Assembly: GCA_001787005.1 (NCBI GenBank) | Contig: MFUV01000010.1 | Location: 73,955 to 137,954, forward strand | Origin: Candidatus Nomurabacteria bacterium RIFCSPLOWO2_01_FULL_39_18 | GTDB taxonomy: Bacteria > Patescibacteriota > Minisyncoccia > Phycocordibacterales > UBA9973 | Direction of reading: 5' to 3' | DNA length: 64,000 nucleotides | Shown: positions 190 to 58,986 of the stretch, in pieces | How positions within the stretch are numbered: position 1 is the stretch's first letter | How the letters are laid out: each line of letters begins with the position of its first letter | Translations under genes and position numbers: made by a program | Notes under the pieces: model-generated | What the model was told of the DNA's origin: nothing | Seen by the model: only the letters and a program-made list of their open reading frames with translations | Database searches by the model: none

Positions 190-254
190 TTTGCCTTAAA
201 GTTCACCTCACCCCTTCGCCCCTCTCCTTGTCAAGGAGAGGGGTTGGGGAGAGG
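190..254. repeat. GC-rich imperfect hairpin (core cccctctccttg-tca-aggagagggg) immediately 3' of the minus-strand Cys-rich gene; no U-tract
   Basis: An 11-bp perfect inverted repeat with longer imperfect outer pairing. It is GC-rich in an AT-rich intergenic context. No T-run follows on either strand, so it is not a canonical intrinsic terminator. Confidence 0.4.
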
Positions 255-2012
255 TCAATACACTTCCGCCTGGTAACACTTTTCACAATAAACGATTTCC
301 GGGCGGTCTGGAGAATATGAAGTTTCGAATTCTACTTCGCACTTGCTTCCTCCATGAAAATGATTTGTTTTGCTTCGCCCGTCGTAGCTTTGCGAAGTCG
401 GGTCGCACATACAAGTACGGTGCCAAAGCTTAAAAGGATTTCTGCGTTTTAATCTAGCCTCGTGACGACAATAAAAACATCGTCTTGGAATCGGAATACT
501 CATTTTTCTGTAGAATATTAATTCATTGGGAATGATCTTGTAATTTCTTTTACAATTTATGCAAACTAAAATTTCTTCGAGAATGCTGTCTGTCACTTCG
601 GTGATTGAATCAGGAATATCTTCTGGCAATAGTGTTTCCTTCCCCACCGTCCGTTGTAAATTATTTTGCCAGTTAAATCCTTTTTTGAAAGCTTCTTCCC
701 TAGAAAGTGGAAAGTGTTCTTGTGCTTCTGTTTCATTGTAGCCAAATGGAGATAGTTCTGCAGGATAAAATTCGCCAAATTTGTAACCGTTTTCCTTCTT
801 GTCTTTGTAGGGTATCTTGTTCATCTGCTCTATAATTTTCGGCACAAGTTTTTCGTATTCCTCTTTTGTATATTGTTTATTGAAAATACAATATTTGGCA
901 TTACGAAGACCTATACAACCAAAACAGTATTGGCAATTATGACAATGCTGGGTATATTCAATGTCCTGGCTTTTCCAGGAATAAATCCCGAACAAATTCC
1001 TGTTTGATTGATCGCAAGTAACACTTTCATAACATTCACTAAGTTCTCCTCCTCCCGCCATGTCATATGAATCTTTCATATTAGTACCAAAATCACAATA
1101 TTTACAATTCTCTGAATTTTTGGCAAAAAAAGAATTTTTTACATTCTTACAGCCCGAAATAACATCACCACTAACATTGACATTATGAATTCCATCCACA
1201 AAACGCCTCGGGTATTTTAAAATAAATTCATCGTACTCTTTCTGTGCTCTTTCTACTCCAGAAAATGTATCGAGCTTATAACTTGCTAAAATCTTCTCAT
1301 ATTCTTCTTTACTATATTGCTCGTTTTTAAAACAATACTTTTTACCAACCAATTCAGCACACATAAAGCAATTAGAGCAGTCTTTGCACCGATATAAAAA
1401 TTGTGAGTCAATGCAAGCTATATTTAACCGAGAATATTTAAGTTGATATGAGTTTCGAGCATTAAAACATTCATAAAGCCATTCACTTTTTGATCTGATA
1501 TTGATGCAATCCATCATATCTCGCCCTTCTAGAATAAAATAACTATACATCACATTTTCAATTCTCCACGCAATAAAAACCATGTAGCAATTTTTACCAA
1601 ATGCAAAGTCTTGTGTATATTCACAATTGACACTCCCAATTCCATCATCATTTACCAGCGCCATGTGCGGTACTTTTAATACAAGTTCTTTAAATTGTTC
1701 AAAGAATGACCGCGAGAAATCATAATCTTGCCCATAATCTTTTGGATCCCACTTATCGCTCCACCAGCATTTATTACAATAAATAACGGCACTGGACTCT
1801 TTAGAATAAATAGTTACCACAGATTTTTTACATAAATCACAAGTTCTGTTATATAGAGATGTGTTGTTTTTCCAAGCCCATCTCCTTTGCCTTCTGCAAT
1901 CCGGACAAAATGTCGGCGGAGGAACTTTGATCTTTTCATAAAACCCAAAGTCATCAGGCTCGATGGTGAAGTTTTGTTTACAATTTTGACAATTTTTTGT
2001 TTCGCTTTTCAT
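255..2012 (-). CDS. Cysteine-rich paralog A (585 aa), unknown family
   Basis: The N-terminus (CQNCKQNFTIEPDDFGFYEKIKVPPPTFCPDCRRQRR) and C-terminus (IVYCEKCYQAEVY) are shared with ORFs 2057..3751 and 43057..44766. Internal repeated modules are present: CxxCxxCxxC and KYC(I/F)xN(E/K)QYSKEEYEK. N- and C-terminal Zn-ribbon-like FY-K-I-VP-P-xCPxCRxxRR units occur. Confidence 0.75.
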   Translation of the reverse strand: MKSETKNCQNCKQNFTIEPDDFGFYEKIKVPPPTFCPDCRRQRRWAWKNNTSLYNRTCDLCKKSVVTIYSKESSAVIYCNKCWWSDKWDPKDYGQDYDFSRSFFEQFKELVLKVPHMALVNDDGIGSVNCEYTQDFAFGKNCYMVFIAWRIENVMYSYFILEGRDMMDCINIRSKSEWLYECFNARNSYQLKYSRLNIACIDSQFLYRCKDCSNCFMCAELVGKKYCFKNEQYSKEEYEKILASYKLDTFSGVERAQKEYDEFILKYPRRFVDGIHNVNVSGDVISGCKNVKNSFFAKNSENCKYCDFGTNMKDSYDMAGGGELSECYESVTCDQSNRNLFGIYSWKSQDIEYTQHCHNCQYCFGCIGLRNAKYCIFNKQYTKEEYEKLVPKIIEQMNKIPYKDKKENGYKFGEFYPAELSPFGYNETEAQEHFPLSREEAFKKGFNWQNNLQRTVGKETLLPEDIPDSITEVTDSILEEILVCINCKRNYKIIPNELIFYRKMSIPIPRRCFYCRHEARLKRRNPFKLWHRTCMCDPTSQSYDGRSKTNHFHGGSKCEVEFETSYSPDRPEIVYCEKCYQAEVY

Positions 2013-2056
2013 AATTTTAACATTCTCACATTCTTAAGAATGTCGGAATGTTATCT

Positions 2057-3751
2057 TCAATACACCTCCGCTTGGTAACATTTTTCGCAATACACTATCT
2101 CAGGTTTGTCTGCAGACCAAGAAGTTTTTATGTCTTTGCCACACTTGGCGCATTTGCGATCGTGGATTTCAATAGGATTTAGAAGTTTCGTGCGCGCACG
2201 ATCACGACAAAGTGGACAGTTGTGCGGAATGGGAAGATTGAAACGTCGATAGAAATCAATTTCCATTTTAATTAGCCGATAATTTTTACCGCACTTCTCG
2301 CATTTTAAGATTTCATTGACTATATCATCTTTCACATCTCTTATGTGTTTAGGTATTCTAATCGTTGCATCTTGATAATCTTTGGGTTCAACATCACGCC
2401 AGGCAAAACCTTCTTTTATCGCTTTTCCTTTCCCTAAAGGAAACCATTCCATACTTGTTGATTCATTGTAAGCCCAAGGGGAGATTTCTGAGGGCATCAT
2501 TTCGCCGTATTTATGAATTCTCCCAATTTTATCAATATAAGGAATCTCCATCATTTGTTTACGCAATTTTTCTGTGATCTTTAAATATTCTTCCTTTGAA
2601 TATCTTTTATTTAAAATACAGTACTCCCCTTTTTTAATGCCCACACAGCCAAACATATTATTGGACGAGTGACATCCAAAACAAAATTCGAGATTGCTAG
2701 CGTTGTAGTTCCAAACACTAAATTTTATATTAGACACTTGCAATCCAACCCAGCATGACTCATATATTAATTCTCCTCGCTCACCGAACTCGGTGTAATC
2801 ATAGCAATCAGCAATCGGTCCAGCTTTTAAAAACTGACAGTACCGACAGTCTTTCGCTTTGCGCACCATGTATGAATCGTGGACATTTTTAGAATTGTAA
2901 ACGTACTCCCCCGTTGTATTAACACTGTTTCTATCGTTGAATTGTTTGCGTGGTTGTGTGAGAAGAAATTCCATCGTAGATTTGCGAAATTTCTCCAGAC
3001 TTTCAACAGACCCAAAATCGTATTTTTTAAAAATTTTTTGAAATTCTTCTTTAGAATATGGTTCGTTGAAAATATGGTATTTCTTTTTTGTAAGATTGGC
3101 ACAGCCAACACAATCAGAACATCCTACACAACTACGGCAAAACCACATATTCATAGAACCGACGACATCTTCACAGAAAAAAGTTTGATAGCTGGAGTGG
3201 GTAATAACATTGCCATAGCCCATTTGATCATGGCGTGTCCAAGAACAGTCAATGGAGTCTTTAATGTCAGCAACTTCATTTAAATAAGCACAGTTTTCTG
3301 CATAATCAATTCTAAAACATAAATAACAATCTTTGCATTCTGCGGCAGCATTGCAATAATCACTCCGAACCATTGACGCATGTTCAGTATAGAGAGCAGG
3401 CAACGGTACGTCGCGCATAAGTTCACCAAACTGTTCTAGAAAAGATCGTGACCAATCAATTTCTCTGCCATGTTCCTTAGGATCCCACTTATCACTCCAC
3501 CAAATATCCTGACGATAGACTTTATAGGGTGAATCTTTGTGATGCGTCGTGATAACCTCCTCGCCAGTAAAATCGCATTTTCTTTTATATAAAATTTGAT
3601 AGCCCTGCCAAGAAAGCCTGCGCTTAAGTCGACATTCTGGACACCAAGTCGGTGGTGGCACTTTGATTTTCTCATAAAATCCAAAATCCGAAGCGTCTAT
3701 TGTAAAAGAATTTTTACAATTTTGACAAACCCTAGTTTCTTCCATATGCAT
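2057..3751 (-). CDS. Cysteine-rich paralog B (564 aa), tandem with paralog A
   Basis: Same architecture as paralog A: N-terminal CQNCKNSFTIDASDFGFYEKIKVPPPTWCPECRLKRR, internal CRSCVGCSDCVGC and YSKEEY modules, C-terminal IVYCEKCYQAEVY. Confidence 0.75.
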   Translation of the reverse strand: MHMEETRVCQNCKNSFTIDASDFGFYEKIKVPPPTWCPECRLKRRLSWQGYQILYKRKCDFTGEEVITTHHKDSPYKVYRQDIWWSDKWDPKEHGREIDWSRSFLEQFGELMRDVPLPALYTEHASMVRSDYCNAAAECKDCYLCFRIDYAENCAYLNEVADIKDSIDCSWTRHDQMGYGNVITHSSYQTFFCEDVVGSMNMWFCRSCVGCSDCVGCANLTKKKYHIFNEPYSKEEFQKIFKKYDFGSVESLEKFRKSTMEFLLTQPRKQFNDRNSVNTTGEYVYNSKNVHDSYMVRKAKDCRYCQFLKAGPIADCYDYTEFGERGELIYESCWVGLQVSNIKFSVWNYNASNLEFCFGCHSSNNMFGCVGIKKGEYCILNKRYSKEEYLKITEKLRKQMMEIPYIDKIGRIHKYGEMMPSEISPWAYNESTSMEWFPLGKGKAIKEGFAWRDVEPKDYQDATIRIPKHIRDVKDDIVNEILKCEKCGKNYRLIKMEIDFYRRFNLPIPHNCPLCRDRARTKLLNPIEIHDRKCAKCGKDIKTSWSADKPEIVYCEKCYQAEVY

Positions 3752-3797
3752 TTATATTATCACTAATCAGAGCGGAGTCCAGCACCAAGCTCCGGCT

Positions 3798-4691
3798 TTG
3801 GTGCTGCGGATCTGGCTCATTTTTTTGATTAAAATACATTGGTGTGCTATTGTTTTCAGGATGAATCCCCCAGAAATTACAATGAATAAAGACAATTCTT
3901 TACAATCCATTCCTCGCATAATTTTCTTTCTTTTGATGATTACATTGGTTGTTTATTCCTCGTCTTTAAGCATAAGATACAGACGAGAAGAACAAATCAA
4001 AAAAATTGAATCTGAAAAAAAAATCTATTTGACTGGAAAATTTGAGCCGAGCGAGCGAGAAGATTTTGTTTTGATTTCACCGGAAAATGCTTTCGGTGCG
4101 AACGATATGTATTTAAGGAAAGAAGCTTACGGAACATTTATTTTGATGCGCGAAGCCGCCAAAGAAGATGGAATTGATTTAAAGATAGCTTCAGCTACTA
4201 GGAATTTTGATTATCAAAAAAATATCTGGGATGAAAAATGGGCTGAGCTTGAAGTTGTTGATGGAAAAAATATAGATCAAGAAATTCCCGACGGATTAAG
4301 GCGATTTAAAAAAATATTAGAATTCAGTTCGGCTCCTGGCACATCCAGACACCATTGGGGCAGTGATATTGATATAAATAGAGTCAATCCTCTTTATGCT
4401 GGCAGCGCTAGAGATGAAATAGAAAGAGAAAAAATATATGCCTGGCTTGTTAAAAATGCCGCTCAATTTGGATTTTGCCAAACCTACACTCTCAAAAATG
4501 AAGCTAGAAAAACTGGGTACAAAGAAGAAAGGTGGCATTGGTCTTACCTGCCGCTCTCCAAAGCGCTGACGCAAGAATACAAAATTTTAGTAAAAAATGA
4601 AGATATCAAAGGATTTTCGGGCGACGAATTCGTTTCCACTTATGATCTCGTCAACAACTATGTGCTAGCCATCAACCCCGATTGTATCTAG
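3798..4691 (+). CDS. Peptidase M15 (VanY/D-Ala-D-Ala carboxypeptidase-like) with N-terminal TM segment
   Basis: SRHHWGSDIDIN matches the M15 S-x-H-x-x-G-x-A/D-x-D zinc-ligand motif, and the C-terminal EERWHWSY resembles the EPWHxRY motif. The true start is probably the Met at about 3882 (MNKDNSLQ...). Confidence 0.6.
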   Translation: MVLRIWLIFLIKIHWCAIVFRMNPPEITMNKDNSLQSIPRIIFFLLMITLVVYSSSLSIRYRREEQIKKIESEKKIYLTGKFEPSEREDFVLISPENAFGANDMYLRKEAYGTFILMREAAKEDGIDLKIASATRNFDYQKNIWDEKWAELEVVDGKNIDQEIPDGLRRFKKILEFSSAPGTSRHHWGSDIDINRVNPLYAGSARDEIEREKIYAWLVKNAAQFGFCQTYTLKNEARKTGYKEERWHWSYLPLSKALTQEYKILVKNEDIKGFSGDEFVSTYDLVNNYVLAINPDCI

Positions 4692-5221: not shown

Positions 5222-5974
5222 TTACTGTTTTGTTATGACAATATCTTCGAAGTGATTATTTTGCACCGCGTCCAGAATTCCATTTCTTACTAATTCCAGC
5301 ATTGCTAAAAATCCCACTATCACCGTCACCTTCTCTTCCCGCGTAGATACCTTGCCCGCAAATTCGGAAAAGTTCATCTTGAGAGCAGTTTGTATCCTTT
5401 GCGAAAGTCTATTAATCATTTCTTCTATGCTTATAACCTTTCTCACTTCCGCTTCCGGCAAAATTATTTTTTGGGGCATTCCTCCCAGAACCTCGCGCGC
5501 GAAAGTCATCATTGATTCTCTGGTAATCTGATTATCCGGCAAAAATACAAGAACTTGATTTTTCTGTTCCTGTGGCGCAAAAATTATTTTTTTTCCAAAA
5601 TTACTTTTTATATGTAGAGAAAGTTTCGTAAAAAGTTCATATAAACGCAATTGTTCCTCTAGGCTACGTATATCGCCTTCTTCTTCCGAAGTAAGATTTA
5701 AATTAGGAAGCAATGATTTTGATTTGATCAGAATAAGAGTTGATGCAACCAAAATAAAATTTGAAATTTCCTGTGGGGACAAACCTGCCTGCGCCCCGCC
5801 TGCGCGGGCAGGAGACAGGCCACCTAGTTTGTTCATGTACTCTAGGTAATCTTCCGTTACGGTAGCTAATGAAACATCATTAATAAAAAGTTTCCTTTTT
5901 TCTATGAGATCCAAAAGTAGCCCAAAGGGGCCCTCAAAGCCTGCAGTCTTTATTGTATAGGTATCTCTTTCCAC
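5222..5974 (-). CDS. scpA: Segregation and condensation protein A (kleisin) carrying a 12-aa GC-rich insertion
   Basis: FEGPFGLLLDLIEKRKLFINDVSLATVTEDYL is the canonical ScpA N-terminus. An insertion, LSPARAGGAQAG, is encoded by the 36-nt element at 5784..5819. Confidence 0.8.
   Translation of the reverse strand: MERDTYTIKTAGFEGPFGLLLDLIEKRKLFINDVSLATVTEDYLEYMNKLGGLSPARAGGAQAGLSPQEISNFILVASTLILIKSKSLLPNLNLTSEEEGDIRSLEEQLRLYELFTKLSLHIKSNFGKKIIFAPQEQKNQVLVFLPDNQITRESMMTFAREVLGGMPQKIILPEAEVRKVISIEEMINRLSQRIQTALKMNFSEFAGKVSTREEKVTVIVGFLAMLELVRNGILDAVQNNHFEDIVITKQ
5784..5819. repeat. 36-nt GC-rich palindromic element (cctgcctgcgccccgcctgcgcgggcaggagacagg), copy 1, in-frame in scpA
   Basis: Identical 36-mer also at 21456..21491 inside lepA. 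Both encode LSPARAGGAQAG in the host-gene frame. Contains the hairpin cctgc-gcgg-gcagg. Confidence 0.85.
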
Positions 5975-10045: not shown

Positions 10046-11269
10046 ATGCAAAACCCATTTCAAAACGCAATGGCACAGCTCGACAAAGTCGCCAAAATCA
10101 AAGATTTTGGCGATGAGTTTATCGCGTGCCTCCGACAGCCCGACCGAGATATTAGAATTACAATACCGGTCAAAATGGATGACGGTTCTATGAAAGTTTT
10201 TGAAGGATACCGAGTGGAATATAACAATACTCTGGGTCCCTATAAGGGCGGAATTAGATACCATCCAAACACGGAAATAAACGAGGTGAAAGCATTAGGT
10301 TTCTGGATGATGCTCAAATGCGCCGTAGCTGGAATCCCCATGGGCGGAGGCAAGGGCGGTGTAACTGTCGAGCCAAAAGATTTGTCCAAAAAAGAATCAG
10401 AAAGACTTTCTCGCGGATGGATACAAAAACTTTCTGATGTCTTGGGACCATACAAAGATGTCCCTGCGCCGGATGTAAATACCACGCCCGAGATAATGGA
10501 ATGGATGGCGGACGAATACGGAAAAATAACTGGCGATAAAACCGGAGCAGTAATAACGGGCAAGCCATTGGATAAAGGTGGCTCCGAAGGGCGAAATATA
10601 TCCACAGCACAGGGCGGATTTTATGTCTTTGAGACACTTCGTAGAGAGCTTGGATTGCCAGAGAAATGCAAAGTAGTAATTCAGGGATTTGGAAATGTGG
10701 GAAATAACGCCGCAGATATTTGGAGCAAGGCAGGACATGTAGTAATAGCGGTTTCAGATTCCAAAGGAGGAATTTATAAAGCAGACGGGATTGATATAAA
10801 AAAGCTCGCTGAGCATAAAAAAAATACTGGTTCACTTTCTGGCTTTGAAGGAAGCTCAAATATTACCAATCAAGAATTACTGGAGATAGAGTGTGATTTA
10901 TTAATTCCTGCTGCTTTTGAAAATGTCGTCACCGAAGCCAATGCAGGAAAAATTAAGGCAAAGATCGTCCTAGAGCTCGCCAATGGACCCACAACTCCAG
11001 AAGCGGATGAAATTTTGTTTAAAAAAAACATTCCCGTAATTCCAGATATCTTGGCAAATTCTGGAGGCGTTGTAGTTTCCTATTTTGAATGGGATCAAAA
11101 TTTGAAACAGGAGCACTGGAGTGAAAAAGAAGTCTTCGAAAAATTACGTCCGATGCTTGAAGATGCTTCAAAAAAAATATTAGAAAAGGCAAGAGAGGCA
11201 AACACCTCTCTCCGCATGGGCGCCTTCATCTTGGCACTTGAGAGAATAAAAGAAAAAATGCGCGGTTAG
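10046..11269 (+). CDS. gdhA: Glutamate dehydrogenase
   Basis: Catalytic lysine motif GIPMGGGKGGVTVEP. Rossmann motif GFGNVGNNAA. Size is 407 aa. Confidence 0.9.
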   Translation: MQNPFQNAMAQLDKVAKIKDFGDEFIACLRQPDRDIRITIPVKMDDGSMKVFEGYRVEYNNTLGPYKGGIRYHPNTEINEVKALGFWMMLKCAVAGIPMGGGKGGVTVEPKDLSKKESERLSRGWIQKLSDVLGPYKDVPAPDVNTTPEIMEWMADEYGKITGDKTGAVITGKPLDKGGSEGRNISTAQGGFYVFETLRRELGLPEKCKVVIQGFGNVGNNAADIWSKAGHVVIAVSDSKGGIYKADGIDIKKLAEHKKNTGSLSGFEGSSNITNQELLEIECDLLIPAAFENVVTEANAGKIKAKIVLELANGPTTPEADEILFKKNIPVIPDILANSGGVVVSYFEWDQNLKQEHWSEKEVFEKLRPMLEDASKKILEKAREANTSLRMGAFILALERIKEKMRG

Positions 11270-11331
11270 CTCAGTGGTAGAGCGACCCCTTGACGTGGGG
11301 TAGGCCGGGGGTTCAATCCCCTCACCGCGCA
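11260..11331 (+). tRNA. tRNA-Val (anticodon GAC)
   Basis: Cloverleaf: acceptor gcgcggt/accgcgc; D-arm gctc-agtggta-gagc; anticodon stem acccc/ggggt with loop ttGACgt; T-arm ggggg-ttcaatc-ccctc. Its first 10 nt overlap the gdhA stop region. Confidence 0.85.
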
Positions 11332-11332
11332 C

Positions 11333-12631
11333 ATGAGAATCTTGAGCATCGAGACATCTTGCGATGATACGGCAATAAGCATTATGGAGGCAAAGGGGGG
11401 TGTTACGAACGCCTCCTTCGGCGTATTGGCAAACACTTCAAATTCACAAATAAAAGTCCATATCCCGTACGGTGGAGTTTATCCAGTGCTGGCAAAACGG
11501 GAACATACTAAAAATCTGCCAATCCTTCTAGAACAAGCATTAAAGGAAGCAAAACTAGAGAAAGAAAATAGTCCTGTGGATGTTATTGCTGTCACTTACG
11601 GTCCGGGGCTGGAGATGTGTTTGTGGGAGGGAATAATTTTCGCACAAAAATTAGCGAAAAAGTGGGAAGTGCCGTTAATCCCCGTAAACCATATGGAGGG
11701 GCATGTGTTGTCAGTATTCGGGAAAGATAAAGGGAAGTTTAAAATCCCTAAAATAAAATTTCCCATGCTTTCCTTGCTCGTTTCCGGCAGACATACGCAG
11801 TTAGTACTGTCTAAAAAACCCGCCCGACCGGACGCTAGCCCGACAAGGTCATTCTGGCGGGGTCGTTCGGGCGGGTGGTTGCAATACGAAATTATCGGTA
11901 CAACCTTAGATGACGCAGTTGGTGAAGCTTTCGACAAAGTTGCCAGAATGCTCGATCTTCCCTACCCGGGCGGACCGGAGATTTCTAAACTGGCAGAAGA
12001 AGCCAGAATCTTGCGCAAGGGAAGCATTGCGCAAGCTGGCGACAGGAAAAGAGGGGCTTTGCTCTTACAGAGACTTGGGAGCGCGTCGTCTGCTTTCCAG
12101 CAGACCCCCGCACGAGGAATTTTTCAGCAGAAAAATATCCGTGCTCTGGAAGAGCAAAGCCCCTCTTTAAAGCTTCCTCGCCCAATGCTTCACAGTAAAA
12201 ATTTTGATTTCTCTTTCGCAGGATTGAAAACCGCTGTGCTTTACCTCATACATGATCTGAAAAAAGAACATTCCAACATTTTGCAAAATAACCAAATGAA
12301 AATGCAGATTGCTTTAGAGTTTGAGAATGCGGCGATAGAGTGCCTTACACACAAAACAAAAAAGGCTATAGAAAAATATAAAATCAAAACACTCATCGTG
12401 GCTGGCGGGGTGGCCGCGAATAAACATTTAAGAAATGAGATGCAAAAAATCACCACCCCAGACCCCTCCTCAAAAAGGAGGGGAGGAATTAAACTCCTCT
12501 TCCCCACCAGAGAACTCTCGGGGGACAATTCTCTGATGATCGGCATCGCCGGATACCTAAATTATCTAAAAAATAAGAAGAAAGTTCCCAAACTAGAGAG
12601 CATCAAAGCGACTGGTAATTTAAGGCTCTAA
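11333..12631 (+). CDS. tsaD: tRNA N6-threonylcarbamoyladenosine synthase TsaD (Kae1/Gcp family) with two GC-rich insertions
   Basis: MRILSIETSCDDTAISI, HMEGHVL, GRHTQLVL...YEIIGTTLDDAVGEAFDKVARML, FSFAGLKTAV. Insertions lie at about 11816..11881 and 12010..12170 relative to the TsaD consensus. Confidence 0.85.
   Translation: MRILSIETSCDDTAISIMEAKGGVTNASFGVLANTSNSQIKVHIPYGGVYPVLAKREHTKNLPILLEQALKEAKLEKENSPVDVIAVTYGPGLEMCLWEGIIFAQKLAKKWEVPLIPVNHMEGHVLSVFGKDKGKFKIPKIKFPMLSLLVSGRHTQLVLSKKPARPDASPTRSFWRGRSGGWLQYEIIGTTLDDAVGEAFDKVARMLDLPYPGGPEISKLAEEARILRKGSIAQAGDRKRGALLLQRLGSASSAFQQTPARGIFQQKNIRALEEQSPSLKLPRPMLHSKNFDFSFAGLKTAVLYLIHDLKKEHSNILQNNQMKMQIALEFENAAIECLTHKTKKAIEKYKIKTLIVAGGVAANKHLRNEMQKITTPDPSSKRRGGIKLLFPTRELSGDNSLMIGIAGYLNYLKNKKKVPKLESIKATGNLRL
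11816..11881. repeat. GC-rich hairpin element in-frame in tsaD (cccgcccgac ... gtcgttcgggcggg)
   Basis: An imperfect inverted repeat encodes SKKPARPDASPTRSFWRGRSGGW between the conserved HTQLVL and YEIIGTT segments. It shares a cccgac-aaggtc core with the valS 3' hairpins. Confidence 0.7.
12010..12170. repeat. Composite palindromic element in-frame in tsaD: 25-bp arms aaagaggggctttgctcttacagag / ctctggaagagcaaagcccctcttt (1 mismatch) plus cttgcgcaag palindromes
   Basis: The arms at 12048..12072 and 12144..12168 are reverse complements. The interior has nested hairpins (ctgct-ttcc-agcag). Encodes about 55 extra residues before the FSFAGLKT motif. Confidence 0.7.
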
Positions 12632-12642
12632 TATGATATTAT

Positions 12643-14829
12643 TTGTCTATGGATAGTAGATTACTCAAACCCTATAACCCGAAAGAAACAGAAGAAAGAA
12701 TCTACAAGCTATGGGAAGATAGCGGTTTTTTTAACCCAGACAAGAATACTAATCCAGACGCCGAGCCTTTCACCCTAATAATGCCTCCCGTCAATGCAAA
12801 TGGTTCTCTACACGCGGGACATGGCCTGATACTGACCATCGAAGATGTAATGGTGCGCTACAAAAGGATGCGCGGATTCAAAACGCTCTGGCTTCCAGGA
12901 CTAGACCATGCCGGCTTTGAAACACAAGTCGTTTATGAAAAGAAGTTAGAAAAAGAAGGACGAAGCAGATTCGAGATAGAACCAAAACAACTTTATAAGG
13001 AAATTCTGGACTTTACTCTAGCCAACTCGACTAATATAAAATCTCAGATAAGAAAAATGGGAGCTTCGTGCGATTGGGGACGAGAAAAATTTACACTAGA
13101 CCCAGATGTGGTGAAAACTGTCCATCAAACATTCGAGAGAATGTATGACGATGATTTGATTTATCGAGGAAAACGAATCATCAGCTGGTGTTCCAAGCAT
13201 CAAACATCATTTTCCGATTTAGAAATAAAAGACGAAGAACGCACAGACGATTTTTATTATCTCAAATATGGACCTTTCACTATCGGCACAGCTAGGCCAG
13301 AAACTAAATTTGGTGATAAATATGTAGTTATGCACCCGGATGACGAACGTTATAAAGAATACAAAGAAGGCCAAAAAATAAATTTAGAATGGATAAATGG
13401 TCCCATAGAAGCCACTGTTGTAAAAGATGACTCCATAGATAAGGAATTCGGAACCGGAGTCATGACGATAACTCCCTGGCACGACACTCTAGACTTTGAG
13501 ATCGCAGAGCGACACAAGCTAGACAAAGAACAAGTCATCGACGAAAACGGAAAATTGCTACCCATCGCGGGAGAATTTGCCGGACAACATATCAAAAAAG
13601 CACGACCACTCATAATCGAAAAATTGCAAAAGAAGGGTTTGGTGGAAAAAATAGATACAAGCTACAAGCATGTCGTTCGTACTTGCTATAAATGCGGGAC
13701 AATTATTGAACCTCAAATCAAAAGTCAGTGGTTTGTGAAAATGAAACCTTTGGCCGAGAAAGCCTTGGAGAAAATTGAGAATGGAGAAATAGTTTATATT
13801 CCCGAACATTATAAAAAAATTACGGTTCATTGGTTAGGGAACATAATGGACTGGAATATCTCCCGGCAGATAGTCTGGGGGATCCCCATTCCCGCAAAGA
13901 TATGTAAAGAATGCAGTCACGGAATGGTAGATATAGGGGAGAAAATTACAAAGTGTAAAAAGTGTGATGGCGAAGTTGAAAAAGACAATGACACCTTTGA
14001 TACTTGGTTCTCGTCTGGACAGTGGCCGTTTGTAACACTTGGTTATCCAGATTCTCCTGATTTTAAAAAATTTTATCCCACGGACGTTATGGAAACTGGG
14101 GGCGACATTATATTCTTTTGGATTTCTCGTATGATTATGCTGGGCCTCTATGTGACCGGAAAAATTCCCTTCAAGACGGTATATTTAAATGGCATGGTTC
14201 TCGACGCTAAAAGCCAAAAAATGAGTAAAAGTAAAGGAAATGTTATCGATCCGCTTGTCCTGACAGAAAAATACGGCACCGATGCCTTCAGAATGGGAAT
14301 GGTTGTGGGCAACACGCCAGGGACCTCGCTCGCACTTGCCGAGGAGCGGATTAGAGGATATAAAAATTTCGCAAATAAAATCTGGAATGCTGCACGCTTC
14401 GTGCTCGACAATACGAAAGATTTTAAAATACCGACAACGCCGCCCTATGACGAAGAAGATAAGAAATCAGACGAAGAACTGAAAAATTTAATAACCGAAA
14501 TCACGACAGAAATAGATGAATACAAGTTCTACATTGTCGCAGAAAAACTTTACCACTACTTTTGGCACACTTTTGCTGATATTATTATTGAGAGGTCAAA
14601 AAAGAAAATTGCCGAGAACAAAAATGCAGATGGAGCAAAGGCGCTTTTGTATACACACCTCGAAACATTGCTTGGGGCTTTGCACCCCTTCATGCCATTT
14701 ATTACTGAAGAAATTTGGCAAATTATAAAATCCCGACGCAAGGTCGGGACCCCGACTGAAACGTCGGGGTTACTTATGGTAGAACAATGGCCCTTTGACT
14801 CTGCTCAGGGCAAGCCAAAATCGATATGA
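12643..14829 (+). CDS. valS: Valyl-tRNA synthetase (short form, lacks C-terminal coiled-coil)
   Basis: HIGH region PPVNANGSLHAGHGL. KMSKS motif KMSKSKGN. Anticodon-binding region LHPFMPFITEEIWQ. Size is 728 aa. The last 25 aa are encoded by tandem GC hairpins. Confidence 0.9.
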   Translation: MSMDSRLLKPYNPKETEERIYKLWEDSGFFNPDKNTNPDAEPFTLIMPPVNANGSLHAGHGLILTIEDVMVRYKRMRGFKTLWLPGLDHAGFETQVVYEKKLEKEGRSRFEIEPKQLYKEILDFTLANSTNIKSQIRKMGASCDWGREKFTLDPDVVKTVHQTFERMYDDDLIYRGKRIISWCSKHQTSFSDLEIKDEERTDDFYYLKYGPFTIGTARPETKFGDKYVVMHPDDERYKEYKEGQKINLEWINGPIEATVVKDDSIDKEFGTGVMTITPWHDTLDFEIAERHKLDKEQVIDENGKLLPIAGEFAGQHIKKARPLIIEKLQKKGLVEKIDTSYKHVVRTCYKCGTIIEPQIKSQWFVKMKPLAEKALEKIENGEIVYIPEHYKKITVHWLGNIMDWNISRQIVWGIPIPAKICKECSHGMVDIGEKITKCKKCDGEVEKDNDTFDTWFSSGQWPFVTLGYPDSPDFKKFYPTDVMETGGDIIFFWISRMIMLGLYVTGKIPFKTVYLNGMVLDAKSQKMSKSKGNVIDPLVLTEKYGTDAFRMGMVVGNTPGTSLALAEERIRGYKNFANKIWNAARFVLDNTKDFKIPTTPPYDEEDKKSDEELKNLITEITTEIDEYKFYIVAEKLYHYFWHTFADIIIERSKKKIAENKNADGAKALLYTHLETLLGALHPFMPFITEEIWQIIKSRRKVGTPTETSGLLMVEQWPFDSAQGKPKSI
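14735..14790. repeat. Tandem GC-rich hairpins (cccgac-gcaag-gtcggg; accccgac-tgaaac-gtcggggt) forming the valS 3' coding end
   Basis: Perfect short inverted repeats. They encode the SRRKVGTPTETSGLL tail in place of the usual ValS coiled-coil. Confidence 0.6.
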
Positions 14830-19126: not shown

Positions 19127-19182
19127 TGTTCAGTGTTAAACACTGTTAAACACTCAGTGTTGAACATTTCGATGTTGAACAT
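19127..19182. repeat. REP-like hairpin repeats, family A (units gtgttgaacac / tgttgaacatttcg), 5' flank of RAYT-1
   Basis: Tandem imperfect palindromes: cagtgttaaacactgttaaacactcagtgttgaacatttcgatgttgaacat. Confidence 0.7.
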
Positions 19183-19573
19183 TTTTATGGCAGTTTTTCA
19201 ATCATTTGTTGGATCGAACATTCACCAGGAAAATCAAAGTTAGGGACATCCCCATACCCAGTAGTGCCACCAATAAGAGCATGCCATAATCGATACTTTT
19301 GTCTTTCTAGGGGGTTGGGATAAGATTGATTGATAATATCTAGGCACCGCTCTTTCCATTTTTGAAACTCGGTAACTCCTATTTTTTCTTGAAAAACAAG
19401 CATCTTTTGCTTAAGTCTAATAATTAACTCTCTCTCTCTGCCGAAGTCTGTAATAATTTTGTACTTTTTTCATCCCTGGATTGTACACCCTCAGCTCCTT
19501 GGGAAAATTTATCTGGTTTTGACATAATATTTGATTTTATCACACCAACAACCCTTTTCCCAATACCCACACT

Positions 19574-19612
19574 AATGTTGAACAATGTTAAACACCGAGT
19601 GTTGAACATTTT
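19574..19612. repeat. REP-like family A copy immediately upstream of RAYT-1 start
   Basis: atgttgaacaatgttaaacaccgagtgttgaacattttt. Confidence 0.7.
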
Positions 19613-19635
19613 TCATAAAGGTATATAATACGGTT

Positions 19636-20301
19636 ATGAGAAATATAAAAATAGCACCCGGAGAATATTATCATATTCTTAATCGTGGAATGAGTAAGCA
19701 ACTAATTTTTCATGACAATAGAGATAGAACAAGATTCCTCTTTCTAATTTTATACTTTCAATCCCCTGTTACAATTCAAAATATACATCGTCCAGTAAAG
19801 TCATTTGTTGAACACTCGGTGTTTAACATTGATAAAGAGATTGAGCAAGAAATTGTTACAAGGAAGTTCGTAGAACTCGTCTCCTTTTGCTTAATGCCAA
19901 ATCATTTTCACTTAATCGTCAAAGAAATCGAGGAAAATGGTATGGCTAGATACATGCAAAGAGTCTTGAATGGTTATACCAAATACTGTAATACAAAATA
20001 CAATAAATCGGGACATCTTTTTCAGGGACCATATAAAGCAGTACATATAAGGAGTAACGAGCAACTTTTATATTTATCTTCATATGTCCACAGGAATCCG
20101 AGAGAACTGAAAGAGTGGTTAAATAAAGAAAGTAGTTATCCATGGTCAAGTTACCAAGATTTTATAAAGAAGAATAGGTTTAAAGAATTACTTGTTCTTG
20201 ATATAATCAGTGGACAATTCAAAAATAAAGACAAGTATAATAAATTTATAAAGGAGAGTACGGCAAAATTATTAAAGGAAGAACTGGATTGGATAGACTA
20301 G
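19636..20301 (+). CDS. REP-associated tyrosine transposase-like (IS200/IS605 Y1 HuH transposase family), RAYT-1
   Basis: GEYYHILNRG near the N-terminus, the HuH motif CLMPNHFHLIV, and the downstream QGPYK with Tyr. Size is 221 aa. A REP-A copy (tgttgaacactcggtgtttaacat, 19806..19829) lies inside the ORF, in-frame. Confidence 0.75.
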   Translation: MRNIKIAPGEYYHILNRGMSKQLIFHDNRDRTRFLFLILYFQSPVTIQNIHRPVKSFVEHSVFNIDKEIEQEIVTRKFVELVSFCLMPNHFHLIVKEIEENGMARYMQRVLNGYTKYCNTKYNKSGHLFQGPYKAVHIRSNEQLLYLSSYVHRNPRELKEWLNKESSYPWSSYQDFIKKNRFKELLVLDIISGQFKNKDKYNKFIKESTAKLLKEELDWID

Positions 20302-20304
20302 TAA

Positions 20305-20351
20305 GTGTTCAGTGTTCAACACCGAGTGTTGAACACTCGGTGTTGAACAAT
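20305..20351. repeat. REP-like family A, 3' flank of RAYT-1 (perfect hairpin gtgttcaacac-cga-gtgttgaacac, then a second overlapping hairpin)
   Basis: The 11-bp stems are exact reverse complements. It sits in inverted orientation relative to the upstream copies, a REPIN-like arrangement. Confidence 0.8.
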
Positions 20352-20428
20352 ATGCGGGATTAGTTTAGTGGCAGAATGAGTCCTTCCCAAGGATTAGACG
20401 GGGTTTCGATTACCCCATCCCGCACCAG

Positions 20429-20971: not shown

Positions 20972-22858
20972 TTATTCCACGCTTTTCATCATTTTCAAAA
21001 ATACATCTTGGGGGATGTTCACTCGCCCCCTTTCCTTCATTTTCTTTTTGCCCTTCTTTTGCTTCTCACGAAGTTTCATTTTGCGAGTGATGTCTCCGCC
21101 ATACATGTGCTGAGTAACATCCTTCTTCATGCCAGAGAGAGTGCGTGATGAGATGATGCGCCCTAGCGCACGACCTTGAATTTTCAAAGTGAACATTTGC
21201 CGTGGAAGCAGGCTCTCTAATTTAAGAACAGTTTTTTCAGCTTCAATTTCCACTCTTTTCCTGGAAACCACCTTAGAAAAAGCAGGAACTACTTCATCGG
21301 CAACCAGCACATCAAGTCTAGTAACATTCGCCATCCTCATATCATCTATCTGGTAAGAGATGGAACCATAGCCAGATGATGCGCTTTTCAATTCATCGAA
21401 AAAGTTGCGCATCAGCTCGCGAAGCGGCATTTTCACGGACAAAATAAAACGATTGCCTGCCTGCGCCCCGCCTGCGCGGGCAGGAGACAGGTCGCCGAAG
21501 TTTTCTGTCTCTCCAATCTCGGCTTCGTGGTCAAATAAAATTTGCATAATAGAACCCAGATATTTTGCAGGAGTTATGATCTTAGCTACCACCCACGGTT
21601 CAAAAACAGTTTCAATATTACTATCGTCTGGGAAAAAATATGGAGAATACACTTTTTCCTTTTTACTATTCTTCATTAACACTTCATAGGTGATAGACGG
21701 AGTGGTAATGATTAATTCTAAATTAAATTCCCGCCTTAACCTCTCGGTAATAATCTCCAAATGTAACATTCCCAAAAATCCGCACCGGAAACCGCGACCA
21801 AGAGAGCCGGAAGACTCTTCTTCATAAGAAAAAGCCGAATCTGAGAGTTTAAGCTTTCCAAGGGCTAATTTAAGTTCGGCAAAATCGTCTGCGTCTTCGG
21901 GAAAAACTGAAGCCCAGACCACGGGCATCGGCTGCATATAGCCAGGCAGAGCCGGCAAGGGATTTCTAAGCATCGTAATGGTATCTCCGACAGATGCAAT
22001 TCCGGGTTTCTTAATACCGGTAACAATGTATCCTGTATCACCGGCAGAAAGATGCTCCCGCGGAGTTTCTTCGGGCGAGAAAGTGCCCACCTCGAGAGAG
22101 TTGAATTTCTCGCCCGATATTGCAAAAACTAAATTTTCGCCTTTCTTGATTTTGCCGTCAAGCACTCGTATAAAAACAATTACCCCCCTATGATTGGAAT
22201 ATTTGAAATCAAAGACAAGAGCGCGCAAGCTGTCATCCCCTTTATACGTTTCTTTGGGCTCTGGAACGCGTTTGATTATCTCCTGTAAGAGATTCTCCAC
22301 TCCCTCGCCCGTACGGCCAGAAACCAATAGTATTTCTTCGGGATCACAATTTAAAAGCTTTATAACTTCTTCTCTAACTTCGGATACCCTAGCAAGTGGT
22401 GAATCAATCTTCGAAAGCACAGGAATGATTTGCCTGCCTCCTTCTTTGCCCCCCTCGCGCGCCATATTGAGCGTAGTCAGCGTTTGAGCCTGCACACCCT
22501 GAGTGGAGTCGACTAGTAAAATAGAGCCTTCTACGGCCTTTAGAGCGCGAGAAACTTCATAAGAAAAATCTATGTGCCCAGGGGTATCAATCAGGTTCAG
22601 TACATACTTAGTGGTCGAAGCACCACTTGGTGCTTCGACCACTAAGTCATATTCCATCCTGACTGGCTGCATTTTGATGGTGATCCCCCGCTCGCGCTCA
22701 AGCTCCATGACGTCGAGCACTTGCTCTCTCATTTTGCGAGTCTCGATGGTATGAGTAATCTCGAGCATTCTGTCCGCCAAGGTGCTCTTGCCATGATCAA
22801 TGTGCGCGATGATTGAAAAGTTTCGTATGTGTTTTAAATCCATTTTTTTGTGTGTCAA
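20972..22858 (-). CDS. lepA: Elongation factor 4 (LepA) carrying the 36-nt element insertion
   Basis: G1 motif NFSIIAHIDHGKSTLADR. DTPGHIDF. The LepA-specific C-terminal domain is present. It carries the LSPARAGGAQAG insertion encoded by 21456..21491. Confidence 0.9.
   Translation of the reverse strand: MTHKKMDLKHIRNFSIIAHIDHGKSTLADRMLEITHTIETRKMREQVLDVMELERERGITIKMQPVRMEYDLVVEAPSGASTTKYVLNLIDTPGHIDFSYEVSRALKAVEGSILLVDSTQGVQAQTLTTLNMAREGGKEGGRQIIPVLSKIDSPLARVSEVREEVIKLLNCDPEEILLVSGRTGEGVENLLQEIIKRVPEPKETYKGDDSLRALVFDFKYSNHRGVIVFIRVLDGKIKKGENLVFAISGEKFNSLEVGTFSPEETPREHLSAGDTGYIVTGIKKPGIASVGDTITMLRNPLPALPGYMQPMPVVWASVFPEDADDFAELKLALGKLKLSDSAFSYEEESSGSLGRGFRCGFLGMLHLEIITERLRREFNLELIITTPSITYEVLMKNSKKEKVYSPYFFPDDSNIETVFEPWVVAKIITPAKYLGSIMQILFDHEAEIGETENFGDLSPARAGGAQAGNRFILSVKMPLRELMRNFFDELKSASSGYGSISYQIDDMRMANVTRLDVLVADEVVPAFSKVVSRKRVEIEAEKTVLKLESLLPRQMFTLKIQGRALGRIISSRTLSGMKKDVTQHMYGGDITRKMKLREKQKKGKKKMKERGRVNIPQDVFLKMMKSVE
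21456..21491. repeat. 36-nt GC-rich palindromic element, copy 2, in-frame in lepA
   Basis: Identical to 5784..5819. Same orientation relative to its minus-strand host gene. Confidence 0.85.
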
Positions 22859-30629: not shown

Positions 30630-31520
30630 TTATATACCCCACACAGCAGTATTGGCAAGTGAAACAAGGCGATTATTCGACTTTTCCAAGACACAGAGCT
30701 CCCCGGCTTCTGTTTGACCCTTAAAATCTTTCATTATTTCAGCAAGCGCATAACTAAGTGAAAGCGCAGAAGAATCGGTAGCATAAGAAGTCAAAATCAC
30801 AAAAAGGGGCTTGTCGGTTAGAACCCTCCCGACCAAAGAAAGCAGTTTCGGCAACATTTCTTCTATCTTCCATACTTCCCCCCTGGGACCACGGCCGTAC
30901 TTGGGCGGATCCATAATCACAGCGTCATACTTATTGCCTCGTTTTATTTCTCGCTCTAGAAATTTTGTGGCGTCATCTTCTATCACCCGCATTGGCATTT
31001 TATCAAGGCTAGATAATTTTTGATTTTCTTTCGTCCAATTTAATACTTGCTTCGAGGCATCCACATGCGTCACATCTCCACCAGCCCTGAGAGCAAATAG
31101 GCTCGCCACACCGGTGTAGCCGAATAAATTAAGAAATTTTATTTTCTTGCCGGAGTTTTTTATTTTATTCTCTATGTAATCCCAGTGATTTGCCTGCTCC
31201 GGGAAAAATCCCAAATGTCTAAATGGTGTGGGAGAAACAAAAAATTTAATTCCCCTGTATTCCATCTCCCACTTCGTGTCAAGGTTCAACCTTGACATTT
31301 GCCACCCGGCTTTGGCACCAACTTTCGAGCTCCAGAATTTTCCATCAACATTTGTCCACTGTTGTTGAACACTCGGTGTTGAACATTTCGGCCAGACAGC
31401 ATCTTCATAAGGACGAATAAAAGTGTATTTCCCGAATCGCTCCAGCTTCTCTCCACCACCCGTATCTAGAAGCTCGTAGTCCACCCAATCCTTTGAACAA
31501 AAAATTTTTATCTGGTTCAT
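30630..31520 (-). CDS. Class I SAM-dependent RNA methyltransferase, RlmI/RlmK-like
   Basis: LNLFGYTGVASLFALRAGGDVTHVDASKQVLNW is SAM-binding motif I with a post-I acidic residue. Motif IV is VIMDPPKYGRG. It parallels E. coli RlmI (VLNVFSYTGGF...VIVMDPPKF). It hosts a REP-A insertion. Confidence 0.65.
   Translation of the reverse strand: MNQIKIFCSKDWVDYELLDTGGGEKLERFGKYTFIRPYEDAVWPKCSTPSVQQQWTNVDGKFWSSKVGAKAGWQMSRLNLDTKWEMEYRGIKFFVSPTPFRHLGFFPEQANHWDYIENKIKNSGKKIKFLNLFGYTGVASLFALRAGGDVTHVDASKQVLNWTKENQKLSSLDKMPMRVIEDDATKFLEREIKRGNKYDAVIMDPPKYGRGPRGEVWKIEEMLPKLLSLVGRVLTDKPLFVILTSYATDSSALSLSYALAEIMKDFKGQTEAGELCVLEKSNNRLVSLANTAVWGI
31361..31392. repeat. REP-like family A copy inserted in-frame within the methyltransferase gene
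   Basis: tgttgttgaacactcggtgttgaacatttcgg encodes ...PKCSTPSVQQQW... on the minus strand. It is identical in core to the RAYT-1 flanking repeats. Confidence 0.75.
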
Positions 31521-42931: not shown

Positions 42932-43056
42932 ACATTCATTATACCTTAATAAGTTCTAAAAAGCCGCTATTTGAGAACGCAGAAAAGCACCAATTCTCAA
43001 TCGCGGCTTATTTTAAGCGGCAATTTTGGAAAAAGTTTTCCACAGCTATTGCTTAT

Positions 43057-55726: not shown

Positions 55727-55784
55727 AATTTTTCCCCAGATAGAGCTTTAGACTCTATCTAGAGTCTAAAGCTCTATCTGGCTA

Positions 55785-58188: not shown

Positions 58189-58230
58189 GGTTCCATAATT
58201 ATAACAAATTCTAATTTGGAAGCCAATCCT

Positions 58231-58292
58231 ACCAAGGATTTACCAAGGGGAACCCTTGGTAAATTTAGTTGCTACCAAGGGGAACCCTTGGT
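58231..58292. repeat. REP-like hairpin repeats, family B (taccaaggggaacccttggta), two copies 5' of RAYT-2
   Basis: Stem ccaaggg/cccttgg with loop gaa. The copies are 20 bp apart. Confidence 0.75.
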
Positions 58293-58303
58293 ATGATGAC
58301 TAG

Positions 58304-58960
58304 ATGCAACGAAAAACAAAATTTGTGATCGGAGAGTTTTATCATATTTACAATCGTGGAGTAGAAAAAAGAATTATTTTCCCAAATATATCTGATTATA
58401 AAAGATTTCTAGCTCTTTTATATCTTGCAAACAGTAATGAAATAATACAATTCCGAAATGATTTTTCTAGAACTTTCCTTGAGAAAATTTTCGAGAAAGA
58501 TCGAGGCGAGCCGTTAGTTGCCATTGGAGCATATTGCTTAATGCCAAACCATTTTCATTTATTACTCACTCCCCTGGTGGAGGGAGGGATATCAAAATTC
58601 ATGTTAAAGCTTCAGACTGGGTATTCTATGTATTTCAATAAAAAGAATGATCGGGTTGGGGGGCTTTTCCAGGGAGTTTTTAAATCACAACATATAGATA
58701 AAAATGAATATTTAATGTATATTTATGCGTATATTCATTTAAATCCAACGAAGTTAAAAAATTCAGAATGGAAAACACAACCAAAAAGTTTTTTAAATAA
58801 ACTAAAAAAATTTATTGCTGAATATCCATATTCTAGCTTGCAAGAATATTTATCTGGAAATTATAGAATACTAAACCCTAAGCCATTCCCGATGGAGAAA
58901 AAAGATCTTATTGACCACGATTCTATGATAGATGATTTTAGCGAGGTATTACCAAGGTGA
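58304..58960 (+). CDS. REP-associated tyrosine transposase-like (IS200/IS605 Y1 HuH family), RAYT-2
   Basis: GEFYHIYNRG. HuH motif AYCLMPNHFHLLLTP. Downstream catalytic Tyr region GGLFQGVFKSQHI. Collinear with RAYT-1 and about 30% identical by eye. Confidence 0.8.
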   Translation: MQRKTKFVIGEFYHIYNRGVEKRIIFPNISDYKRFLALLYLANSNEIIQFRNDFSRTFLEKIFEKDRGEPLVAIGAYCLMPNHFHLLLTPLVEGGISKFMLKLQTGYSMYFNKKNDRVGGLFQGVFKSQHIDKNEYLMYIYAYIHLNPTKLKNSEWKTQPKSFLNKLKKFIAEYPYSSLQEYLSGNYRILNPKPFPMEKKDLIDHDSMIDDFSEVLPR

Positions 58961-58986
58961 ACCCTTGGTAAATTAGTAAATTAGTG
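58950..58986. repeat. REP-like family B copy (taccaaggtgaacccttggta) overlapping the RAYT-2 stop, followed by a direct repeat aaattagtaaattagt
   Basis: Same stem as the upstream copies. Located between RAYT-2 and the end of the giant surface-protein gene. Confidence 0.7.

Follow-up and report, generated by a model that had tools for sequence, protein, structure and literature searches.

The tsaD gene of Candidatus Nomurabacteria bacterium RIFCSPLOWO2_01_FULL_39_18, an essential tRNA-modification gene, includes segments of GC-rich DNA with the structure of hairpins within an intact reading frame, and the question raised by this locus is what these segments are and how they came to be part of such a gene. 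The gene is located in a 64,000-nucleotide (nt) stretch (contig MFUV01000010.1, positions 73,955 to 137,954 of the forward strand), named here the window, whose own coordinates are used below. The original prediction, made from the sequence alone, held that tsaD has two separate in-frame GC-rich hairpin insertions; folding, comparison to orthologues and recurrence of the sequences elsewhere support this proposal, the two belong to different families, and a third insertion was found. The inserts probably represent dispersed selfish palindromic elements that are translated through, and the family of the larger one, insert 2, is widespread and apparently undescribed, with an unusual anatomy.

Three hairpin insertions in tsaD

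The tsaD coding sequence (nucleotides 11333 to 12631, forward strand) encodes an intact 432-amino acid protein that includes the HMEGH and GDN motifs and matches the Pfam family TsaD (PF00814) with an E value of 2.9e-73. While the G+C content of the window is 39.8%, that of both flagged inserts is 0.55-0.63. Solved TsaD structures are gapped exactly at both inserts, with about 19 extra residues after LVLSKK and 53 (residues 227-279) before LPRPM, the latter number being close to the 55 that had been proposed. The nearest TsaD proteins are encoded by metagenome-assembled genomes (MAGs) of Patescibacteria, mainly Candidatus Nomurabacteria/Paceibacterota, with core identities of 70-80% and lengths of 349-464 amino acids. 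The length differences among orthologues are confined mostly to a few loops; empty, short and long insert alleles are seen, and many orthologues within this range of core identity lack one or both inserts. The gaps in the solved structures and the absence from these close relatives place both inserts outside the TsaD consensus, as had been claimed. An AlphaFold model based on 31 orthologues was confident for the core and of low confidence at both inserts, with predicted local distance difference test (pLDDT) values below 50 at residues 166-180 and 236-276.

Insert 1 (nucleotides 11819-11875, forward strand) separates KK from W at what is aaaaaa|tgg in the empty site. It had been described as an inverted repeat coding for about 22 amino acids. 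The inverted repeat, ACCCGCCCGACCG / CGTTCGGGCGGGT, is present at 11818-11830 and 11864-11876 (13 nt, 92% complementary), but the comparison to empty-site orthologues defines a block of exactly 57 nt coding for the 19 amino acids PARPDASPTRSFWRGRSGG, and its structure is that of a 30-nt hairpin enclosing a 26-nt inner hairpin. The outer hairpin, similar to repetitive extragenic palindromes (REPs), is formed by a 5′ part (11819-11836, CCCGCCCGA...) and a 3′ part (11863-11875, ...TCGTTCGGGCGGG), a division that rests on the inverted repeat, the orthologue alleles and recurrence; the inner one, AGCCCGACAAGGTCATTCTGGCGGGG (11837-11862), is nested in its apical loop. By our estimate three to four 13-nt repeats with one mismatch are expected by chance in 64 kb, and the repeat alone is not significant; insert 1 is considered real because of its DNA fold (z = -3.25) and the orthologue and recurrence data. 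In most tsaD orthologues this position, site B, is empty, KK|WM (aaaaaa|tggatg), and in some it is occupied by a 30-nt hairpin, either CCCGCCCGActgaacagtcgtTCGGGCGGG or a second type; the minimal 30-nt version is found there in loci L002 and L062. The 57-nt allele, consisting of the 30-mer with the 26-nt hairpin in its apical loop, is present in the window, L007 and L049, the inner piece being the exact reverse complement of that of the window in L007 and having a similar inverted form in L049. The hairpin CCCGCCCGA...TCGGGCGGG (27-36 nt) is also found in frame in relatives, within a gyrB-like open reading frame (ORF), where it encodes PARTAEASRSGG right before IQRYKGLG, and within three additional ORFs. 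The family, of which 12 instances were counted in 1.3 Mb, shares with REPs the nature of short, multicopy, GC-rich palindromes, but the copies examined are all inside ORFs of 219-697 amino acids instead of being extragenic. The 30-mer with its nested hairpin and the recurrence in other ORFs show that insert 1 belongs, as a nested copy, to a dispersed family of hairpins the size of REPs.

Insert 2 encompasses approximately nucleotides 12008-12168. The predicted 25-nt arms with one mismatch were located at 12048-12072 and 12144-12168, separated by a 71-nt spacer, and were matched in none of 100 shuffled sequences. The region 12040-12176 folds very stably (-66.4 kcal/mol and z = -7.3 for RNA, z = -7.7 for DNA), and the nested hairpins that had been noticed correspond to GTCTGCT-TTCC-AGCAGAC at 12088-12105 and AATTTTTC-AGCA-GAAAAAT at 12118-12136. 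Two copies of the palindrome CTTGCGCAAG had been reported; there is a single exact one (12010-12019), the second being the variant ATTGCGCAAG (12026-12035). The alignments show insert 2 to be a composite of the 5′ half of an older diverged copy and a full canonical copy. The remnant (12008-12047, forward strand), which encodes ..LRKGSIAQAGD and holds the two palindromes, has its counterpart, by alignment, in the 5′ half of the SIAQADEPSIANFQQKIMRAES copies, likewise diverged, of L001 and of L049, the nearest tsaD relative. Nucleotides 12048-12168 align with a canonical copy having its own stems. In this copy, which is on the forward strand, the 5′ arm (12048-12072) has about 13 outer nt that are locus-specific and about 12 inner nt (GCTCTTACAGAG) like the arms of an element subfamily. 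The conserved core (12073-12143) has the structure of a three-way junction in which ACTTGGGAG is followed by the hairpin P2 and then by GCACGAGGAATTTTTCAGCAGAAAAATATCCGTG, P2 being enlarged to 29 nt, rather than 14, by the hairpin at 12088-12105; the 3′ arm (12144-12168) completes the element. Covariance model R1, built from 55 copies, matches nucleotides 12063-12153 with 68.5 bits (E 1.3e-15), and this is its sole copy in the window.

The third in-frame hairpin, CCCCTCCT-CAAAA-AGGAGGGG, lies at 12463-12483 on the forward strand within the peptide TTPDPSSKRRGG (DNA fold z = -2.9) and was absent from the original prediction. The segment is missing in most tsaD orthologues (alignment columns ~580-600) and present in P0003, P0006 and P0017.

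The gene located directly 5′ of tsaD is that of a tRNA-Val. This tRNA-Val(GAC) (11260-11332) overlaps the stop of an upstream glutamate-dehydrogenase-like ORF (end 11269) and its last nucleotide is immediately followed by the ATG of tsaD (11333), so that no promoter or ribosome-binding site for tsaD alone could fit in between. A tRNA was the sole match in an Rfam 15 scan of nucleotides 11200-12700.

A dispersed family with a conserved core

A search for the 25-nt arms elsewhere in the genome had been proposed, with a lack of recurrence as evidence against the idea. The search of the window gave the two arms and no further match, and it is the core that recurs. Since the arms are locus-specific and the core recurrent, this outcome contradicts the letter of the proposal and leaves the idea intact. 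A genome scan for TsaD relatives also gave two loci that match the insert peptide alone, pheT, where the copy is read from the opposite strand (EHGYFSAEKFLV), and the spacer between efp and recA. The sequence ACTTGGGAGCGCGACGGCGCGAGCACGAGGAATTTTTCAGCAGAAAAATATCCGTG is common to the window, pheT and efp-recA loci, and the flanking stems differ. The exact 28-mer of the core, used to search metagenomes, was found in at least 120 stretches, and among the matches listed there were 122 distinct copies, of which 111 were analyzed. R1 matched the insert-2 site of tsaD, on either strand, in 45 of 62 orthologous loci, and beyond this site there is about one further copy per 50 kb. The viral contigs scanned contained no copy of the 28-mer, and nothing thus points to transport by phages. 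An Rfam 15 scan of the canonical copy in L077 gave nothing credible at E up to 10, and in the literature searched such elements are not described for Patescibacteria.

The core between the stems measures 54-57 nt in most of the 122 listed copies. The consensus structure consists of a closing stem P1, a 2-bp helix, the 4-bp P2 hairpin and the P3 hairpin AATTTTTC-AGCA-GAAAAAT. Pairing was observed in 97% of cells compared to 81.6% in shuffles, and the covariation score was 0.398, compared to 0.113 in shuffles (none of 500 reached the observed value) and 0.045-0.094 with slid partners. The compensatory changes in P2 are clean: CGCG/CGCG, GCTT/AAGC, GAGC/GCTC, GGCT/AGCC and GCCC/GGGC.

Inside ORFs of at least 200 amino acids there are 44 of the 111 listed copies, the rest being intergenic. 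The host genes include tsaD, pheT, iscS/nifS, uvrD/pcrA, recG, comEC, dus and one coding for a GT39-like membrane protein. Five of the six combinations of frame and orientation are used, giving the unrelated peptides RLGSATARARGIFQQKNIRA, ASTRNFSAEKYP, EHEEFFSRKISV, HGYFSAEKFLVLAPSRSQ and TDIFLLKNSSCS; the sixth contains TGA and is never used among the listed intragenic copies. The host frame is kept open in all 44 cases, and gene-splitting copies are practically missing, as only 3 of the 67 copies outside ORFs are flanked on both sides by long open frames of one strand. The unused stop-containing frame and the lack of split genes indicate that the element is tolerated only where it can be read through, which argues against splicing or ribosomal bypass. 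A sequence that is removed like an intron, or skipped by the ribosome like the byp elements of Magnusiomyces mitochondria, might be suspected from a hairpin of -66 kcal/mol and from the known translational bypass of GC-rich palindromic inserts (cited in a passage of PMC6649704), but the open host frames and the absence of a match to any ribozyme or intron family make untranslated inserts highly improbable.

The same results bear on the idea that the inserts are lineage-specific functional extensions of TsaD, for example interaction surfaces where the t6A machinery is reduced. They keep the frame and have persisted in an essential gene, and the same two loops are filled in many relatives, which would favor such a role. 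However, other genes have this DNA in five different reading frames, the tsaD site of relatives holds other families or orientations coding for unrelated peptides, the residues have pLDDT values below 50, and close relatives do without them; a protein-level function is in our opinion extremely unlikely. More probably, selfish elements have landed in frame in surface loops of TsaD and are translated through, producing disordered extensions devoid of a role in the protein.

The iscS loop (IRH...FHTDA) is found in four states among orthologues that are 65-75% identical: empty, with the canonical element in one orientation, with the canonical element in the other, and with PLLSKERAGER, WSGWGRDPENRGPEK or NF..S..PRPARPDHSKN, which belong to other hairpin families. 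The family of NF..S..PRPARPDHSKN is also found at tsaD site C in L002, L028 and L039, and the dus sites have the element in both orientations. Site C of tsaD and the iscS loop are hot spots common to several hairpin families. Hairpins nested in apical loops are found as the inner piece of insert 1, in P2 of the window copy, in P2 of L079 and L146, and in the window composite. In L079 (~1340-1455) the P2 loop holds the hairpin CCTGCCCGCAATGC...GCGTTGCAGGCGGG, like those of the insert-1 family, so that, judged by sequence, a member of one family seems to have entered a loop of the other. Locus L063 has three copies of the insert-2 family in 2.6 kb (1681-4305), one per intergenic space around efp and recA. 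These copies and the tsaD copy of L047 belong to the same MAG (fen_1328), and the cores of L047 and L063:3023 are identical while their stems are different.

Patescibacteria have tiny, streamlined genomes that are commonly held to be poor in mobile DNA. At least five GC-rich hairpin families are found here inside essential genes (tsaD, pheT, gyrB, iscS, uvrD and recG). Insertions of this kind would account for much of the length variation and of the "low-complexity" segments of Patescibacteria proteins, which confound alignment, phylogeny and structure prediction.

Stems, strand bias and turnover

The stems, with a median length of 16 nt and a maximum of 33 nt, are unique to each locus. Of the 111 listed, 66 are perfect, and there are 62 mismatches in 1980 positions. 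Their composition is host-like (35-37% G+C), and arm length and composition are equal for intragenic and intergenic copies. In the 8 nt beyond the arms the T/A fractions are 0.31 and 0.34, with background values of 0.29 and 0.31. Pre-existing terminators were considered as a source of the stems and rejected in general, since the flanks are not T- or A-rich and the arms are alike inside and outside genes. G-T pairs represent about 11 of 37 stem mismatches (~30%), which is the share expected from random mutation, and this lack of enrichment indicates that stem pairing is kept at the level of the DNA and not as RNA. In L090 the imperfect stem typical of its subfamily (TCTTATCAG / CTGAGAAGAG) is now perfect, and the four stem differences between L008 and L041 are each mirrored in the opposite arm. 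These properties would fit intra-strand template switching, by which quasi-palindromes are corrected and extended outward; template switching has been discussed for perfect coding palindromes (PMC6649704). In the iscS of P0135 the arm peptide SKNLSLPFF is present without the core, a sequence that suggests that one arm is host-derived, and in the iscS of the host the codons TGGAAAAAA and TTTTTTCCA complement each other naturally. The family could serve as a natural system for studying the origin and upkeep of perfect palindromes in translated genes.

By another view, insert 1, the third insert and the stems arose locally, by replication template switching of chance quasi-palindromes and with no transposition. 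The locus-specific and often perfect stems, the correction in L090, the complementary iscS codons and the published proposal of the mechanism for coding palindromes (PMC6649704) are all in its favor. However, the same CCCGCCCGA...TCGGGCGGG is present in unrelated genes and the 56-nt core is identical at unrelated loci. A local origin cannot yield shared sequence; it may account for the stems and not for the elements, and as a general explanation we judge it improbable.

Locus L133 (1823-2091), in which 119-nt perfect "arms" reach the contig end, was set aside as a probable fold-back assembly artefact. Artefacts of this type, produced from a hairpin, are a warning for assemblies of such genomes.

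The element has a biased orientation with respect to GC skew. Its + form is on the C-rich strand, defined by a negative GC skew of the flanks, at 55 of 80 loci (p = 0.001), or 57 of 80 with third codon positions, although these loci include orthologous copies and are not independent. The orientation of the gene relative to the element is unbiased (36/80), and the window copy follows the majority strand orientation. The bias suggests that the process is linked to one of the two replicative strands, as in the single-strand transposition systems that recognize hairpins.

Several results weigh against the reading as selfish mobile elements. Target-site duplications were not detected, the flanking direct repeats having a mean length of 1.73 nt compared to 1.84 in shifted controls. 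Clustering of 866 neighboring ORFs identified housekeeping genes only, with no transposase or autonomous partner, and in the lack of any enriched neighbor gene mobility is inferred from the distribution only. No nucleotide-level empty site of a recent insertion was recovered. In nine tsaD genes with a canonical copy at the same site, amino acid identity is 62% and third-position identity 39% (saturated), while the core has 90% identity over the 34 nt outside the search 28-mer; one of the retrieval patterns, GIFQQKNI, is inside the element, which biases the sample and inflates this contrast. Passive junk at orthologous sites should not stay about 90% identical, and the covariation of P2 is the pattern of any structure under constraint. 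As to the stems, whose origin we only infer, the results for iscS are mixed: next to the arm peptide of P0135, comparison of the L080 product to solved structures shows nearly both arms as extra residues, contrary to a host origin of the arm. The fetched flanks of the copies, which are contig fragments, revealed no REP-associated tyrosine transposase (RAYT), and the terminal repeats, locus-specific except for a weak consensus of about 10 nt (TTTTnnAGAG/CTCTnnAAAA), are not those of MITEs, the miniature transposable elements with inverted repeats.

A nearly identical core within diverged tsaD genes needs repeated re-insertion, gene conversion, or selection for a host function. In the last case the core would be a nucleic-acid element beneficial to the host, either a DNA or protein-binding site of the REP/BIME type or a structured RNA, under purifying selection, and the ORFs would merely tolerate its insertion. 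This is the main rival of turnover by an active element. Apart from the contrast of about 90% with 39% identity, it would explain the covariation of P2 and the 2-bp helix, the very wide distribution of an exact 28-mer, the lack of a transposase among the clustered neighbors and the orientation bias relative to GC skew; the 7-4-7 palindrome ATTTTTC-AGCA-GAAAAAT also resembles, by its sequence, a dimer-binding site. On the other hand, decayed, flipped, replaced or absent copies in many tsaD and iscS lineages indicate that the host does not depend on any single copy, the presence of both orientations within mRNAs counts against a cis-acting RNA, G-U pairs are not enriched, no Rfam family is matched, and the conservation estimate is partly biased by the way in which loci were retrieved. 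We therefore favor turnover by an active element and regard a host function as unlikely, although less so than a local origin. The near-invariant core is a handle on the responsible enzyme or function, and could be used as a sequence marker for these lineages in metagenomes.

The three tsaD inserts are probably copies of dispersed GC-rich hairpin repeats that colonize the AT-rich genomes of Nomurabacteria/Paceibacterota (Patescibacteria), and possible mechanisms for their turnover can be outlined. The elements would move, or be copied, as DNA through a single-stranded folded intermediate, which would account for the orientation bias with respect to GC skew. Their preferred entry may be the apical loops of pre-existing hairpins, and this would account for nesting and for the common hot spots. 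Intra-strand template switching, by quasi-palindrome correction or inverted flank duplication, would then make the locus-specific stems and keep them perfect, and inversion between the arms could flip the element at a fixed site. Entry into hairpin loops and the upkeep of perfect stems, probably by template switching, look new. Taken as a whole, dispersed hairpin DNA repeats in tsaD, translated through and propagated in this manner, are the account that we consider somewhat probable, while the mechanistic steps taken together are rather doubtful. Equally tentative is the proposal that the 56-nt core defines a new, Patescibacteria-specific class of mobile or maintained DNA element that enters apical loops, builds perfect locus-specific palindromes and is kept near-invariant by dedicated machinery or a host function, and that with its companion families it may form an "ecosystem" of nested intragenic palindromes at common hot spots in essential genes.

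Known palindromic elements and other repeats of the window

By description, the nearest analogue would be the family of Rickettsia palindromic elements (RPEs). RPEs are palindromic repeats, from tens of bp to about 150 bp long, found in small, AT-rich, reduced genomes, located in frame in unrelated housekeeping genes as well as in intergenic regions, and translated into segments compatible with the host fold (PMC10969869). The differences are that RPE families are described as encoding one conserved peptide each while five frames are used here, that the stems are locus-specific here, and that, according to a passage of PMC6649704, the identity of RPE repeats fades with time, whereas here the core is near-invariant and stems are perfect. 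Membership by descent is very unlikely given the Patescibacteria hosts, since RPE-1 to RPE-10 are confined to Rickettsia, the likeness being one of description and not of sequence. The family would represent a second, independent case of the phenomenon, suggesting a general susceptibility of reduced AT-rich genomes.

The REP/REPIN-RAYT system, whose transposases are of the IS200/IS605-like Y1 type, also consists of short GC-rich hairpins in many copies, and insert 1 has the size of a REP (27-36 nt). In this system recognition is of structure and not of sequence, and the mechanism is single-stranded and linked to replication, with which the orientation bias found here is consistent. However, REPs lie outside genes and bear a GTAG or CGTC tag (PMC3733652), which is not evident here, and the arms of REPINs are conserved while here they are the variable part. 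Bacterial MITEs such as ERIC, Correia and BOX are likewise non-autonomous, small and hairpin-forming, with occasional in-frame intragenic fusions (PMC10969869, PMC2759123); unlike classical ones, the elements described here lack target-site duplications, conserved terminal repeats longer than about 10 nt and a parent insertion sequence.

Two mitochondrial systems are also similar. The coding palindromes of Nematomorpha mitochondria are perfect inverted repeats in translated genes, with arm identity seemingly maintained and template switching as the proposed mechanism (PMC6649704). There both arms encode conserved protein and no mobile core is shared, whereas in the present elements it is the core between the arms that is conserved, the arms themselves coding for loop residues that are not. 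The GC clusters of yeast mitochondria and the byp elements are GC-rich palindromic inserts of AT-rich genomes that can be intragenic, but byp elements interrupt the frame and ribosomes skip them, while the frame is always kept here.

Other repeats are present in the window. A 41-nt GC-rich palindromic repeat, CCTGCCTGCGCCCCGCCTGCGCGGGCAGGAGACAGG, which is probably the "36-mer" of the original prediction, occurs at 5784-5824 and 21456-21496 with 95% identity; both copies are in frame in different minus-strand ORFs (253 and 633 amino acids), encoding GLSPARAGGAQAG. Near the 3′ end of valS (14729-14777) there are two adjacent GC-rich hairpins, TCCCGAC..GTCGGGA and CCCCGAC..GTCGGGG, which encode SRRKVGTPTETSGLL followed by the tail FDSAQGKPKSI. 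The hairpin CCCCTCTCCTTGTCAAGGAGAGGGG at 204-259, flanked by GGGGAG/CCCCTC motifs, is of the type from which PLLSKERAGER, inserted in the iscS loop of the relatives P0126, P0128 and P0155, is translated. A palindromic motif of 23-26 nt, TGTTGAACACTCGGTGTTGAACA, is present six or more times within 1.2 kb (19134-20364), with one more copy 11 kb away (31353-31388), and from its sequence the cluster looks like an operator or iteron array. Nucleotides 55736-55781 include a perfect 22-nt inverted repeat with a 2-nt spacer, CCAGATAGAGCTTTAGACTCTA / TAGAGTCTAAAGCTCTATCTGG, and three copies of a 36-nt repeat holding the palindrome TACCAAGGGGAACCCTTGGTA are located at 58230-58297 and 58939-58974. The direct-repeat families D1, D2, D5 and D7, located at 254-3739 and 43056-44757, correspond to three diverged paralogous segments (~70% identity) at approximately 250-2100, 2050-3740 and 43050-44760.

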